The translations under genes and the position numbers were made by a program. Shown here one piece after another: positions 12,687 through 21,694 of a stretch of 31,064 nt of DNA; the stretch's first letter is position 1; every line of letters begins with the position of its first letter. The notes under the pieces are model-generated. The model saw only the letters and a program-made list of their open reading frames with translations. It searched no databases and was not told where the DNA came from. Origin of the DNA: a virus. Taxonomy: Duplodnaviria > Heunggongvirae > Uroviricota > Caudoviricetes. The stretch spans positions 1-31,064 of the IMG/VR virus record IMGVR_UViG_2737471828_000009; one strand, given 5' to 3'.

Positions 12687-12704
12687 TTTTTTCGGAGAAA
12701 GGTG

Positions 12705-13067
12705 ATGCGTGATATTCAGATGGTTCTGGATCGTTGGGGAGCATGGGCGGCGAGTGATAGTTCAGGAGTAGATTATTCTCCTATAGCTGCTGGGTTTAAA
12801 GGGCTTCTTCCCTATACAAGCAAAACACGTCAGGCTTGTTCAGATAGTGATGCATTAATTATTGAAGGTTGTCTTGCACGTCTAAAGCAAAAAAGACCTG
12901 ATGAGCATTCGCTTCTTGTGGCCCATTACCTATACGGTATCTCTAAAAGAAAGCTCGCTAAAGCTCGCAAAAAGGATGAGAAAATAATACGCATTGAGAT
13001 ACAGATGGCTGAGGGATTTATAGAAGGTTGTCTAGCTATTCTAAATGTTAGCTTAGATATGGATTAA
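12705..13067 (+). CDS. Q: Late-gene antiterminator Q (QuuD/QuuQ-like small Q family)
   Basis: About 120-aa product in the position of Q, upstream of the lysis genes; family assignment from memory of the K-12 cryptic-prophage Q proteins; ATG 12705 preceded by GGAGA. Confidence 0.65.
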   Translation: MRDIQMVLDRWGAWAASDSSGVDYSPIAAGFKGLLPYTSKTRQACSDSDALIIEGCLARLKQKRPDEHSLLVAHYLYGISKRKLAKARKKDEKIIRIEIQMAEGFIEGCLAILNVSLDMD

Positions 13068-13082
13068 TATCTTGGTTTGGAT

Positions 13083-13106
13083 AAGCAGGTGTGCTTGCAC
13101 CTGCTT
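13083..13106. terminator. Perfect hairpin between convergent Q and membrane-protein genes
   Basis: AAGCAGGTG-tgcttg-CACCTGCTT (9-bp perfect stem) followed on the plus strand by AATATTATAT; likely limits read-through from Q into the antisense of the cargo cassette. Confidence 0.4.
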
Positions 13107-13110
13107 AATA

Positions 13111-13557
13111 TTATATGTGGGGTAATATCCAGTTTATTTTCCTCCAGGTACTTGCAAATGAAACTATTGATACGATCAGGGTCGAGAAACCATATAAGGT
13201 TAGGGCGAAATCAAGTCTTACAGAGGTAATGGTGATTTTTTCATTTATAAACATTGCTATCAGCGGGAAAATACATGCTAATATTAAGGTAACTCCCGTA
13301 GATAACAGGTTATGAATAATTTTAGGTAAAATCTTGTTTTGTTTTAAAGCAAAAATAATTCCATCAGTACTTGAACTTGCAGAACTGAAGATGGAAATAG
13401 CGGCCAATACAAAACCAAACAAAATGCCTGCCACCGTAGATAACACTCCGGCTGTACTTAAGATATCAGAGTGAGCCATAGGCGCTAGGTATTTCCCAAG
13501 CACCCAAGCTAACAGCCCACTGATAACTATGTTAATTAAAACTTTAATAAGCATAAT
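13111..13557 (-). CDS. Small integral membrane protein with four predicted TM helices (RexB-like architecture)
   Basis: About 148-150 aa; four hydrophobic segments (approximately residues 3-23, 34-59, 81-105, 117-137); AT-rich; 14-nt gap after the upstream gene; the start may be the third Met (AAGG at 6 nt spacing). Confidence 0.6.
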   Translation of the reverse strand: MMLIKVLINIVISGLLAWVLGKYLAPMAHSDILSTAGVLSTVAGILFGFVLAAISIFSSASSSTDGIIFALKQNKILPKIIHNLLSTGVTLILACIFPLIAMFINEKITITSVRLDFALTLYGFSTLIVSIVSFASTWRKINWILPHI

Positions 13558-13577
13558 CATCATCCTTAAAAATAAGA

Positions 13578-14510
13578 TCAGATTTCATATTGCTTTAAAT
13601 ACTGACCATGTTCAATTTTAGCACTGATCAAGGCAGTACGCACATCTGTTTCTTTTGCGTAGCCATCTTTTGTGTTAATGTTTTTTTCACTGATCAGAAC
13701 TTGATTGAGAAGACTCCTTGAATGAGTATTTTTAGGTTCAGTGACATTAGCTTTACGTAATAAGTGAGGAACTTTTTCTATTAATTCCTTTATTCCACTT
13801 TTTACTTCATCACTGAGATAACCACGGATTAATTTACGTTGCGATGCTCTACCTCTAAGTGATAGTTTTAAATGCGAACCGCCCATCCCAGCCATCATTT
13901 CAATCATACTTTTGGAAAATGAATTCGAAAGGTCATAATCCGTTGCGCTAAAATTACGTGGAGCGGCGAGTGTAATTTCACAGCTACGTAAAGTGCTTCC
14001 TGTTTCAAGTAGTTCTTTTACACTTTCTTTTTTCCAAATTGCCTCAAACGCTACAGGTTTGTTTTCTTCAGAAAAATTGAATAAAAGAAATGCTAAATCG
14101 GAAACTTTAGGTCCTAAATGATTTTGAGATAAAACAAGAATGTCTTTCTTATAGTAGTAAATAAAATAAGTGCGTTCGACTATATATTTTTTATCATCTA
14201 ACGGAATATTGTGCTCATCCCAATTTTCATCACCAATATAAGGTAAGTGGAAACCATCACGAGAGCATGATAGATAACCAAAATAGAACTCCGCCTGTGC
14301 GTCTTTTTCTAAGAATACAACCTTTAATTTTTTCTTATCAAACTCAGCGGTATAAGAATTTTGCGAAGGTGTAACAATGGTTGTATACATGTTGTCAAAT
14401 GCAAGTTGTGCATTTGATGTAGTTGACTTCGTTCCTGAGGAGCTTTGGAAGAAACCGATACGCATTTTTTTTTGTTTAGTTAGTGGCGCGGAAGTGGCTG
14501 TAGTAGTCAT
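13578..14510 (-). CDS. Soluble 310-aa protein, first gene of the counter-oriented two-gene cassette (candidate abortive-infection sensor, RexA-like architecture)
   Basis: ATG 14510 preceded by AAAGGG at about 8 nt; AT-rich; forms a tight operon with the downstream membrane protein; no catalytic motif recognised. Confidence 0.6.
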   Translation of the reverse strand: MTTTATSAPLTKQKKMRIGFFQSSSGTKSTTSNAQLAFDNMYTTIVTPSQNSYTAEFDKKKLKVVFLEKDAQAEFYFGYLSCSRDGFHLPYIGDENWDEHNIPLDDKKYIVERTYFIYYYKKDILVLSQNHLGPKVSDLAFLLFNFSEENKPVAFEAIWKKESVKELLETGSTLRSCEITLAAPRNFSATDYDLSNSFSKSMIEMMAGMGGSHLKLSLRGRASQRKLIRGYLSDEVKSGIKELIEKVPHLLRKANVTEPKNTHSRSLLNQVLISEKNINTKDGYAKETDVRTALISAKIEHGQYLKQYEI

Positions 14511-14810
14511 TAAAATTACCCTTTATTATCCTTTTGAATCAATGGGTTGTGATTTGTTAATGATCCTGGGTTCGTTGCATATGCATAATCTATCAAAAAA
14601 AACTTACGCGGTCCGCATTTTCTCGTTTACTGTGTTAAGAGTGGTTACTTCGCCACACAGCTTAAACCCGCCGTCGAGCGGTTTTTTTGTACCTGTAAAC
14701 CTGGTGCAGTACAGTAAACACGCTGGTGGTCGTGAATACTGACTTTTTATCTTGCTGGCTTTTTAGACAAGAGTTATTGGTATGTCATGTTAACCAGAAG
14801 GGAAAAAGAC

Positions 14811-15014
14811 ATGCTAAAACAGCAAGATATGACAGAAACCGCCGCCGCAGTCCTTCATTTCTTACCTGCTGACAAGTGGGTAACGCCACGCATGATGACG
14901 AGAACTACCGGAGTAAGCGAAGCCCGGTGCCAGTTAATACTGACTCAGTTAGTTCTGGCGGGTCTGGCGAAGGATAACGGCGGGTACGGGAATAAATTCA
15001 GACGCTGCCAGTAA
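14811..15014 (+). CDS. Small HTH/winged-helix-like protein upstream of the methyltransferase
   Basis: 67 aa from the ATG at 14811 (preceded by AAGGGA); HTH-like segment TRTTGVSEARCQLILTQLVLAG. Confidence 0.45.
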   Translation: MLKQQDMTETAAAVLHFLPADKWVTPRMMTRTTGVSEARCQLILTQLVLAGLAKDNGGYGNKFRRCQ

Positions 15015-15164: not shown

Positions 15165-16226
15165 ATGAAAAATACTGTAAAAATAAACAGTGTTGATTTA
15201 ATCAACGCTGATTGCCTGCATTTTATTCAGTCCCTGCCTGATGATTCCATTGACCTGATTGTTACCGATCCGCCGTACTTCAAGGTGAAACCCAACGGCT
15301 GGGACAATCAGTGGAAAGGGGACGAAGATTACCTTAAGTGGCTGGACCACTGTCTGGCCCAGTTCTGGCGGGTGTTAAAGCCTGCCGGAAGCCTTTACCT
15401 GTTCTGTGGGCATCGCCTGGCATCTGATATTGAGATCATGATGCGTGAACGTTTCAACGTGCTTAACCATATCATCTGGGCGAAGCCGTCCGGACGTTGG
15501 AATGGGTGTAATAAAGAAAGTCTGCGCGCATATTTTCCTGCCACAGAGCGCGTTCTGTTTGCTGAACATTACCAGGGGCCATATCGCGGCAAAAGTGACG
15601 GCTATGCGGCAAAAGAAAGGGAACTCAAACAGCATATAATGGCACCGCTGATATCGTATTTCAGGGATGCTCGTGCCGAACTGGGTATAACGGCAAAACA
15701 AATTGCCGAAGTCACAGGTAAGAAAAATATGGTTTCCCACTGGTTTGGTGCCAGTCAGTGGCAGTTGCCGAATGAGGCTGACTATCGGAAGTTACAGGCA
15801 CTTTTTTCCCGTATAGCGGCAGAGAAGTTTCAGGAACAACAGCTGGAACAACCACACCACCAACTGGTGGCATCTTATGATTCACTGAATCGCAAATATT
15901 CTGAATTGCTGGATGAGTTTAAATCTCTCCGTCGCTATTTCTCCGTATCAGTCTCCGTGCCTTATACCGATGTCTGGATGCATAAACCCGTTCAGTTCTA
16001 CCCGGGCAAACATCCGTGTGAGAAACCGGCGGATATGCTCAGGCAAATAATCAATGCCAGTAGTCGACCTGGCGATCTGGTTGCTGATTTCTTTATGGGA
16101 TCCGGTTCCACAATAAAAGCAGCAATGGCGCTGGGGCGTCGGGCATTAGGTGTTGAGCTTGAGACAGAACGGTTCAATAAGACCATTCAGGAAATCAGTA
16201 TGTTATCAGCAAATACAATTTTGTGA
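15165..16226 (+). CDS. Orphan DNA methyltransferase (beta-class N6-adenine/N4-cytosine type)
   Basis: N-terminal catalytic motif IV DPPY (LIVTDPPYF) and C-terminal AdoMet motif I (FFMGSGST); no restriction endonuclease gene nearby. Confidence 0.8.
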   Translation: MKNTVKINSVDLINADCLHFIQSLPDDSIDLIVTDPPYFKVKPNGWDNQWKGDEDYLKWLDHCLAQFWRVLKPAGSLYLFCGHRLASDIEIMMRERFNVLNHIIWAKPSGRWNGCNKESLRAYFPATERVLFAEHYQGPYRGKSDGYAAKERELKQHIMAPLISYFRDARAELGITAKQIAEVTGKKNMVSHWFGASQWQLPNEADYRKLQALFSRIAAEKFQEQQLEQPHHQLVASYDSLNRKYSELLDEFKSLRRYFSVSVSVPYTDVWMHKPVQFYPGKHPCEKPADMLRQIINASSRPGDLVADFFMGSGSTIKAAMALGRRALGVELETERFNKTIQEISMLSANTIL

Positions 16227-16473
16227 ATTAACTCAATTATTAGTGGGACATCTGTTACGTATAATCCGTAACAACACGGTGCATCCTGCAATGTTGCAGG
16301 GCTGATGTGGTGGTTTGTGCATAAGTTGCAAAGGATTTGCTTCGTTAATTCATCGTTGACGCAAGCGAGCCACGGTTGACCACGCCAAAGGCTCATCGGT
16401 AGAAATCCGACACCGTGTCGCCATAATCACTCACTTGTTGTTTTACCCATGTTTTTTGGATTACCTGTTATTG

Positions 16474-16508
16474 CTGTCAGACGATTGCCATCGTCTGGCA
16501 GTTTTTTT
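16474..16508 (+). terminator. Strong intrinsic terminator just upstream of the holin gene (candidate tR')
   Basis: 11-bp stem CTGTCAGACGA / TCGTCTGGCAG (one G-U pair), 6-nt loop, followed by T7 (16502..16508). Confidence 0.65.
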
Positions 16509-16565
16509 GCGTCATCCCCCCAATTTTCTGAATATAACGCCACCGGATGATTCGGAGGTGAGGTT

Positions 16566-16781
16566 GTGAGTCCAATGGACAAAATTTCAACGGGTATTGC
16601 CTATGGTACTTCTGCAGGCAGTGCCGGCTACTGGTTTTTACAGTGGCTTGATCAGGTCAGCCCGTCACAGTGGGCGGCAATTGGTGTACTGGGAAGTCTG
16701 GCACTGGGCTTTCTGACTTATCTGACGAATCTGTATTTCAAAATCAGAGAAGACAGAAGAAAGGCTGCGAGAGGAGAGTAA
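16566..16781 (+). CDS. S: Class II pinholin, phage 21 S-type
   Basis: 71 aa, [31 protein letters not shown]...[13 protein letters not shown] closely matches phage 21 S as recalled; two in-frame starts (GTG 16566 and ATG 16575) preceded by GGAGG. Confidence 0.85.
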
Positions 16782-19794: not shown

Positions 19795-21694
19795 CTTTGC
19801 TGTTGTTTGTGGAGTGGCACTTCGTGGGCTTTTACGCCCACTGCCTGTAACCACCGTTGAATGGGCCGATCAAAATTATTATTTGCCCCCGGAGTCCTCT
19901 TATCTTGCTGGGCGGTGGAAGACGTTGCCATTTCAGGTGGCAATAATGAACTGCATGGGTAATGACCGGATCCGCACGATTAATCTTATAAAATCAGCTC
20001 GAGTCGGTTACACCAAAATGCTGATGGGCGTTATTGGTTACTTTATTGAGCATAAAAACCGTAACAGTCTTCTGTTTCAGCCTACGGATTCTGCCGCTGA
20101 AGATTTTATGAAGTCTCATGTGGAGTCAACATTACGGGATGTTCCCTGTCTGAAAATTCTTTCCCCCTGGCTGGGACGTAAGCACCGGGATAACACGCTG
20201 ACATTAAAAAGATTCACTTCCCGTGTGGGTTTTTGGTGCCTGGGTGGTGCTGCCGCCAAAAACTACCGTGAAAAATCCGTGGATGTGGTCTGCTATGACG
20301 AACTTTCCTCGTTCGAGCCGGATGTTGAAAAAGAGGGCTCGCCAACCCTGCTGGGGGATAAGCGTATTGAGGGCTCTGTATGGCCAAAATCCATTCGCGG
20401 CTCGACGCCTAAAATAAAAGGCTCCTGCCAGATCGAAAAAGCGGCCAACGAGTCGGCGCATTTCATGCGTTTTTATGTGCCCTGCCCGCACTGTGGGGAG
20501 GAGCAGTATCTGAAATTTGGCGATGAGTCCACGCCTTTTGGGCTTAAATGGGAGAAGGACAGTCCCGAAAGTGTTTTCTACCTCTGTGAACATCATGGCT
20601 GCGTGATCCATCAGTCTGAACTGGACCAGAGCAACGGGCGGTGGATTTGTGAAAACACGGGCATGTGGACCCGTGACGGTCTGATGTTTTTCAGCGCTGC
20701 GGGTAATGAAATTCCGCCGCCGCGCTCCATCACGTTCCATATCTGGACGGCGTACAGTCCGTTCACCACCTGGGTACAGATTGTCTATGACTGGCTGGAT
20801 GCACTGAAAGATCCCAACGGCCTGAAAACCTTTGTGAACACCACGCTGGGCGAGACCTGGGAAGAGGCCGTGGGCGAAAAACTCGATCACCAGGTACTGA
20901 TGGATAAGGTTGTGCGTTACACGGCGGCAGTGCCTGCCCGGGTGGTTTATCTGACGGCGGGCATTGACTCGCAGCGAAACCGTTTTGAGATGTATGTCTG
21001 GGGATGGGCTCCGGGAGAGGAAGCCTTTCTGGTGGATAAAATCATCATTATGGGGCGTCCCGATGAGGAAGAGACGCTGTTACGTGTGGATGCGGCGATC
21101 AACAAAAAATACCGCCATGCAGACGGAACCGAAATGACCATTTCCCGTGTCTGCTGGGACATCGGGGGGATCGATGGCGAAATCGTTTATCAGAGGTCAA
21201 AAAAACACGGTGTTTTCCGGGTGCTGCCGGTAAAAGGCGCATCTGTCTATGGCAAGCCGGTGATCACCATGCCAAAAACCCGCAATCAGCGGGGCGTGTA
21301 TCTGTGTGAAGTGGGGACGGACACCGCAAAAGAAATTCTCTATGCCCGTATGAAAGCCGATCCCACGCCTGCGGATGAAGCCACGTCGTATGCCATCCGT
21401 TTTCCTGATGATCCGGAGATTTTTTCGCAGACAGAGGCGCAGCAACTGGTTGCGGAAGAGCTTGTGGAGAAGTGGGAAAAAGGAAAGATGCGTCTGCTGT
21501 GGGATAACAAAAAGCGGCGTAACGAAGCGCTGGACTGCCTGGTGTATGCCTACGCGGCATTACGTGTGTCCGTGCAGCGCTGGCAGCTTGATCTGGCTGT
21601 ACTGGCAAAATCCCGGGAAGAAGAGACGACCCGGCCAACCCTTAAAGAACTGGCAGCGAAGCTGTCCGGAGGAGTGAATGGTTACAGTCGCTGA
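19766..21694 (+). CDS. A: Terminase large subunit A
   Basis: 642 aa; long collinear similarity to lambda gpA as recalled ([33 protein letters not shown] ... [11 protein letters not shown] ... [10 protein letters not shown]); overlaps Nu1 as in lambda. Confidence 0.95.

Follow-up and report, generated by a model that had tools for sequence, protein, structure and literature searches.

Positions 16350-16508 of the window (the whole 31,064-nucleotide stretch of viral DNA analysed here), which the initial annotation had read as the late promoter region, are very likely the gene body and terminator of an STnc100/PasD-like sRNA carried in a mobile cassette, and the Q-dependent late promoter (pR') very likely lies at 14603-14640. 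This reading rests on direct results, namely homology, synteny, the change of an upstream element with the Q clade, and RNA covariation.

The window represents a lambdoid prophage. A KilA-N gene and a DUF968 gene precede the Q antiterminator gene (12702..13067, plus strand, 121 aa; full-length match to PF06530, E = 4.4e-52), which converges on a two-gene cargo cassette on the minus strand (13111..14510). The hairpin between them (13082..13107) is a possible bidirectional terminator without a clear T-run, and the mEp390 annotation places a bidirectional terminator at the equivalent position. A 276-nt gap separates the minus-strand pair from an HTH-like gene (14787-15014, plus strand), which is followed by an N6/N4 DNA methyltransferase gene (15165-16226, plus strand) and, after a 339-nt gap, by the first late gene, encoding an S21-type class II holin (16566..16781, plus strand; PF04971, E = 1.4e-35) that is 95.8% identical to phage 21 S. 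The holin gene has a dual start (GTG 16566 and ATG 16575), reading GTG AGT CCA ATG where phage 21 has ATG AAA TCA ATG. A DUF1327 gene and then a lysozyme gene lie 3' of the holin; no tRNA genes were found in the window, unlike phage 21 and 933W, which have them at the equivalent site.

The window Q matches the Q21 structures 6P18/6JNX weakly but specifically, and PF06530 proteins (among them the Q of 933W) constitute the Q21/Q933W family in the naming of Yin et al. (bioRxiv 10.1101/651190). It belongs to what we call clade A, sharing 78-93% identity with the Q proteins of cdtI, E. coli GXU-23-25-310 (GXU), SfIV and mEp390. Clade B comprises QuuD and Q933W, which are 81% identical to each other and ~50% identical to clade A, and the Q of phage 21 is only 28-32% identical to window-type Q.

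The stretch flagged by the initial annotation is part of a discrete 282-nt unit (16227-16508) that is bounded by the methyltransferase stop codon and the last letter of a T-run, and that encloses both TTGAC motifs, the palindrome and the terminator on which that annotation was built. A near-mode search of E. coli genomes with 16227-16570 returned a single genome, and the distant mode exposed a family of 122 genomes that carry an 81.6%-identical copy of exactly these 282 nt; BLAST of the same query against the phage collection gave no match in either mode. Relatives of the module were drawn from the E. coli genomes and from IMG/VR. Within it, a predicted sRNA promoter (16237..16265, plus strand) is composed of a -35-like TTATTA (16237-16242), a 17-nt spacer and a perfect -10 TATAAT (16260-16265), the last invariant in all nine sequence variants despite their differing flanks. 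The predicted transcript (16271..16508, plus strand, ~238 nt), a putative STnc100/PasD-like prophage sRNA by its fold, covariation and a weak Rfam match, would consist of a branched 5' domain, then a U-rich single-stranded stretch, and then the terminator stem (16473-16502) with its T7.

The predicted RNA folds better than 200 of 200 shuffles (MFE z = -3.5). The RNAalifold consensus holds 58 pairs, with 93.6% of cells paired, and ten of these pairs are changed on both sides, a number reached by none of 500 shuffles and set against one to six in slid controls; as the alignment holds six distinct sequences only, we take the covariation as supportive rather than conclusive of a conserved sRNA fold. 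The terminator stem itself carries two double compensatory changes (C-G/G-C to U-A) between the window type and the 81.6%-identical (IHE3034-type) E. coli homologues.

The full-length match of the module to Rfam STnc100 (RF02076) reaches 25.9 bits, below the gathering score of 47. PasD2, which is likewise sub-threshold on this model (41.4 bits), is an sRNA of EPEC E2348/69 validated by Northern blotting and RIL-seq, and Hfq-associated expression has been demonstrated for PasD in the same strain (PMC8550237); a recent preprint relates PasD2 to STnc100 (bioRxiv 10.64898/2026.05.13.724894). In E. coli IHE3034 a complete STnc100 (114.5 bits) lies ~130 nt 3' of the module copy. BLAST of the module against PasD and against STnc100 detected no similarity, and identity with PasD itself was rejected on this ground and because the seed stretch differs. 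We therefore treat the module, as judged from its sequence and predicted fold, as a putative third sequence type of the STnc100/PasD group and not as a demonstrated member of RF02076. The lambda pR' leader was also considered as STnc100-like and rejected on test, hence RNAs of the STnc100 type are not simply 6S-like pR' leaders.

Two further relatives of the module were observed. One viral variant (L134 3842-4084) has a hybrid module, with a window-type 5' end, an IHE3034-type 3' end and ~55 nt of an internal arm swapped for unrelated sequence. In E. coli CE0026f (L010 5001-5182) the first 190 nt of the module recur at 74% identity, among IS elements and CDI toxin/immunity genes with no obvious prophage around; this copy keeps the TATAAT and has no methyltransferase upstream.

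The alternative that fares best, which we nonetheless hold to be unlikely, is that 16227-16508 is a structured 3' UTR and terminator of the methyltransferase operon, perhaps processed into an sRNA but with no promoter of its own. The module does abut the methyltransferase stop codon in the 282-nt E. coli and IHE3034 copies, transcripts arriving from upstream must end at its terminator, and processing of the methyltransferase 3' UTR could equally yield an sRNA. Against it, the perfect TATAAT is invariant across the nine variants, including the CE0026f copy that lacks an upstream methyltransferase, and both PasD2 and the STnc100 copy of IHE3034 occupy intergenic positions of their own. We thus infer that an sRNA would be expressed from 16271-16508 by its own promoter.

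Less probable still is the proposal of the initial annotation that pR', qut and tR' all reside at 16350-16508, leaving the whole 3.3 kb between Q and its late promoter. The stretch has the superficial look of a promoter, pause element and tR', for it offers TTGACC at 16376, TAGAAA 18 nt further on, a -10-like CATAAT (16422-16427) and a strong terminator. The TTGAC copies (16356-16360 and 16376-16380) are indeed there, as is the palindrome GACACCGTGTC, although the latter sits at 16409-16419, to the right of the 16404-16418 first given. As promoter elements, however, the motifs do not rise above chance: TTGAC occurs 40 times in the window, where shuffles predict ~70, and close pairs are found within coding regions too. 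A consensus promoter scan built no promoter on either copy, and inspection by eye shows no -10 for the first at a spacing of 16-18 nt and nothing but TAGAAA, at 18 nt, for the second. The flagged motifs sit instead in RNA helices that are predicted and show covariation. Homologues do not keep the first TTGAC, the second is altered in one of them together with its predicted pairing partner, and positions 16411-16418 of GACACCGTGTC form the 3' strand of a predicted long-range closing helix with 16275-16282. CATAAT is replaced in homologues (by CTTA--- in the IHE3034 type), and the flagged stretch contains no copy of the palindrome that is specific to the Q clade of the window.

The distribution of the module also argues against such a role. 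In IHE3034 it again lies 3' of a methyltransferase, yet the Q of that prophage is an unrelated PF03589 protein of 250 aa. Conversely, the module is absent from cdtI, the phage with the nearest Q and with this very reverse cargo, where just 66 nt lie between methyltransferase and holin, and it is missing from most clade-A contigs. Being found with a PF03589 Q and missing with most clade-A Q proteins, it is not the site of action of the window Q. Furthermore, a homologue of a mapped pR' is present at 14.6 kb.

This homologue belongs to a ~95-nt block (14596-14689) that is kept in five of five aligned genomes (window, cdtI, E. coli GXU-23-25-310, mEp390 and SfIV, compared over the non-coding stretch 3' of the reverse cargo) although their flanks differ. 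Window positions 14633-14693 match 20693-20753 of 933W, where the record annotates pR', qut and a terminator. The Sp5 region is identical to that of 933W, and in Sp5 the pR' start and the 3' end of the short transcript were mapped 257 nt apart by dRNA-seq and Term-seq (PMC7547250). Counting back from the U-tract of the second terminator, we placed the Sp5 start inside an invariant TAAGAG, 6 nt after the -10 TATCAT, a position equivalent to 14638-14640 of the window. Hence, we most likely have at 14603-14640 (plus strand) a Q-dependent late promoter, with a poor -35-like CTTACG (14603-14608) at a 19-nt spacing, a -10 TACTGT (14628-14633) and a start that would fall near A14640, followed by a leader to 14688. 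The leader (14636..14688) contains the invariant TAAGAGTGGTTACTTCGCCAC, a hairpin (14641-14656) and a weak terminator (stem 14668-14681, T7 14682-14688); it is conserved in seven reference phages and prophages, the DLP12 block, one substitution off the exact search pattern, having been recognised by reading the sequence. A single copy of the core motif TAAGAGTGGTTNCNTYGCCAC is found in the window, where chance would give none.

Comparison of 80 IMG/VR contigs that encode a relative of the window Q showed that in 65 the core block follows Q, 57-2783 nt away and in the same orientation; many of the remaining 15 end before the block region. The palindrome GCGGTCCGC is found no more than 45 nt upstream of the core motif (one substitution allowed) in 63 of these 65 loci. 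In the sequence variants listed its offset to the core motif is constant, and the hexamer 3-8 nt 5' of TAAGAG fits the -10 core TAnnnT. In at least nine contigs the gene next to the block, at +141 to +207, encodes a holin. Three unrelated families are represented among these holins (S21-type, mEp390-type and lambda S-type), which indicates that the block travels with Q rather than with the lysis cassette.

In the window the palindrome (ACGCGGTCCGCAT, 14606-14618) overlaps the -35/spacer region. The element at this position varies with the Q clade: clade A has ACGCGGTCCGCA, clade B (QuuD, Q933W) has TTTACG(T/A)(A/T)CGTAAA, and in phage 21 the corresponding position is taken by the published QBE, as would be expected of a Q-binding element. 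We thus consider the palindrome a candidate Q-binding site on account of its position and its change with the clade. A minus-strand terminator call over the same letters (14618-14606; a 5-pair stem with a 3-nt loop) was set aside, a protein-binding palindrome being more likely. As regards pausing, the candidates TAAGAG and TTACTT were assessed and neither fits TAnnnT in all members; TAAGAG, taken up by analogy with TAAGCT of phage 21, was dropped because the Sp5 start falls inside it.

The leader terminator of the window is feeble: its hairpin (14668-14688) folds at -5.7 kcal/mol, a level that shuffled sequences also attain, whereas the values are -12.0 for the SfIV type and -12.6 for 933W, and it is one G-C pair short of SfIV, DLP12 and 933W. 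We observed that the window reads GCGGT here, not GCGGG, a difference that takes the energy from about -12 to -5.7 kcal/mol, and that the weak GCGGT hairpin is found in variants where the HTH-methyltransferase cassette comes next. The GCGG-T7-GTACC junction flanks the cassette in IHE3034 too, so that the terminator T-run may be a recombination joint. The upstream hairpin (14641-14656, GUGGU...GCCAC), which would occupy roughly nucleotides +2 to +17 of the predicted late RNA, is conserved. In one viral variant (GTGA...TCAC) both sides of a pair have changed, from G-C to A-U, and DLP12 forms a G-U pair; the hairpin might have a role in pausing or Q loading.

The position directly after Q is the canonical lambdoid late-promoter site, and a late start there (13070-13110), with the hairpin at 13082-13107 serving as tR' (the outcome that the initial annotation had named against its own reading), can for practical purposes be dismissed, given that only 43 nt, with no promoter-like site and no T-run, separate the Q stop codon from the end of the convergent gene, and that the block which adjoins Q in 933W and in the contig L181 is found at 14.6 kb in the window.

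With pR' most likely at 14603-14640, the distance between Q and its promoter is 1.57 kb in the window and is filled by reverse-strand cargo. Such displacement is typical of this Q clade (64 of 65 loci) and is seen in DLP12 as well; the single contig of the canonical layout, L181, has its block starting 57 nt after the Q stop codon and its slot empty. The Q-to-block interval carries ORFs in the other 64 contigs, the longest frame being on the minus strand in almost all of them, and the cargo, one gene or two, ranges from ~100 to 446 aa in at least ten size classes. Elsewhere the slot contains a PADLOC TIR-TM candidate (mEp390) or the porin gene nmpC (DLP12). In the window it holds a 150-aa gene (13111-13563, minus strand; no Pfam match, phrog_8552) and a 310-aa gene (13578-14510, minus strand; DUF6731, phrog_7651), a cassette of low GC that is also present in phage cdtI. 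PADLOC models gave no match to the pair, which we regard as a candidate uncharacterised lysogen-expressed system; transcription running in from the early operon could conceivably cross this reverse cassette in antisense. The claim of the initial annotation that cargo is inserted between Q and its site of action consequently stands for the reverse cassette and fails for the HTH and methyltransferase genes, which lie downstream of 14603-14688.

These two genes, with or without the sRNA module, make up a mobile cassette, which occurs behind a terminator in IHE3034 (with its PF03589 Q) and after the block in many viral contigs. Their placement had been described as unlike that of Stx-type morons; it is in fact the same, downstream of pR'. 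In 933W/Sp5, tR' is immediately followed by a remnant (~90 nt) of this methyltransferase gene, from its 3' end (L005 1165-1255 = 933W 20964-21054), and a tRNA promoter and tRNA genes sit where the window has its sRNA module.

One element of the initial annotation was borne out: a strong intrinsic terminator stands directly before the holin gene, and the late transcript must read through it. Its stem (16473-16502, plus strand; 13 pairs including one G-U, loop of 4) and T7 (16502-16508) end 57 nt upstream of the holin start (16566), and at -19.9 kcal/mol (z = -5.8) none of 200 shuffles folds equally well. It equals the tR' of phage 21 in strength (-19.8 kcal/mol) and, in a terminator scan, is the only strong plus-strand terminator from pR' to the holin. 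A promoter scan of the interval between terminator and holin (16509-16565) detected no promoter-like site, thus the lysis genes would need Q-modified read-through of 16473-16508. In cdtI, where the sRNA module is absent, a small terminator of its own (-12.3 kcal/mol) lies in the 66 nt before the holin, which fits the idea that a terminator is needed at that position.

We propose the following course of events. Q (12702-13067) would bind the palindrome GCGGTCCGC overlapping the -35/spacer region and load onto RNA polymerase starting near 14640, rendering it termination-resistant. The modified polymerase would then pass the weak leader hairpin (14668-14688), traverse the HTH and methyltransferase genes, override the terminator at 16473-16508 and finally enter the S21-type lysis cassette, while the sRNA gene would fire from its own promoter (TATAAT, 16260-16265). 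The late promoter of Stx phages has been described as constitutive (PMC7547250) and, by analogy, that of the window probably is as well. The stronger first hairpin of 933W is read through in vivo, the mapped 3' end lying ~257-258 nt downstream. Plausibly, with odds that we put at about even, transcription from pR' in the lysogen runs on through the HTH and methyltransferase genes as far as 16473-16508, where it ends. In the lysogen this terminator may then be what effectively shields the holin gene, and the label tR' given to it by the initial annotation may be functionally right even though the terminator belongs to the sRNA gene. A wider scenario we advance only tentatively, as a possibility that we would not call probable: in this Q clade the interval from Q to pR' would serve specifically for the exchange of reverse-oriented cargo that lysogens express, decay of the leader terminator in the window would allow a constitutive pR' transcript to drive HTH and methyltransferase expression in the lysogen, and the sRNA terminator would have been co-opted as the working tR' in front of the holin.

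The consequences are practical rather than conceptual, the current understanding of Q antitermination being unaltered. The annotation of the late start would be corrected for a common class of E. coli prophages with a small Q (120-127 aa), DLP12 included. Cargo upstream of pR' (the reverse cassette) would lie outside Q control, and cargo downstream (HTH, methyltransferase and sRNA) would come under it, like stx in 933W. The STnc100/PasD group of late-region prophage sRNAs would gain its third sequence type. The point of modest interest is the breadth of cargo in the Q-to-pR' slot, which, running from the Q stop codon to the GCGGTCCGC palindrome, is compact, easily spotted and minable for lysogen-expressed defence or conversion genes.

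Among known systems, the predicted sRNA module resembles STnc100 (RF02076) and PasD in its late-region intergenic position between Q and holin, its size (~200-240 nt) and its architecture (a closing helix, ..GGUG/CACC.., a branched 5' domain, a U-rich stretch and a U-tract terminator). It differs from both in sequence (25.9 against the 47 bits of the gathering score, and no BLAST similarity to either), and its single-stranded 'seed' reads CACUCACUUGUUGUUUUACCC where PasD has UGUGAG.

The late promoter finds its closest mapped counterpart in 933W/Sp5 (the StxS transcript), which shares a PF06530 Q, the homologous leader (TAAGAGTGGTTAC..GCCAC) with its small GC hairpin and T-run, a -10 at the same position, a start whose mapped place in Sp5 corresponds to the one predicted here, moron genes downstream of the promoter and, in 933W, a retained 3' remnant of the same methyltransferase gene. 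Unlike the window, 933W has a pR' that overlaps the end of Q with no cargo between them, an upstream palindrome (TTTACGATCGTAAA) matching a different Q clade, and a main 3' end ~257-258 nt downstream, followed by tRNAs and stx.

Phage 21, with whose late region the initial annotation had suggested a comparison, is akin to the window in its Q superfamily, its holin type, a leader of ~50 nt, a Q-specific element between -35 and -10 (a candidate one in the window) and a TAAG motif at the start site. Its QBE is a direct repeat (ATTGAGCA/AATGAGCA), whereas the window element is an inverted repeat, and its strong tR' (-19.8 kcal/mol) directly adjoins Q.

DLP12 of E. coli K-12 (quuD - nmpC - essD, the old qsr' region) parallels the window in layout, with the reverse-oriented cargo nmpC between Q and block and a TAAGAG motif that begins ~170 nt before the holin gene essD; Q-type control of its lysis cassette is reported in work that PMC7918800 cites. 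It departs from the window in its clade B QuuD, its 933W-type palindrome and its other cargo, with neither methyltransferase nor sRNA cassette. The predicted late cassette of the window is of the Q21/Q933W kind, and a displaced promoter with cargo after Q has already been seen in DLP12.
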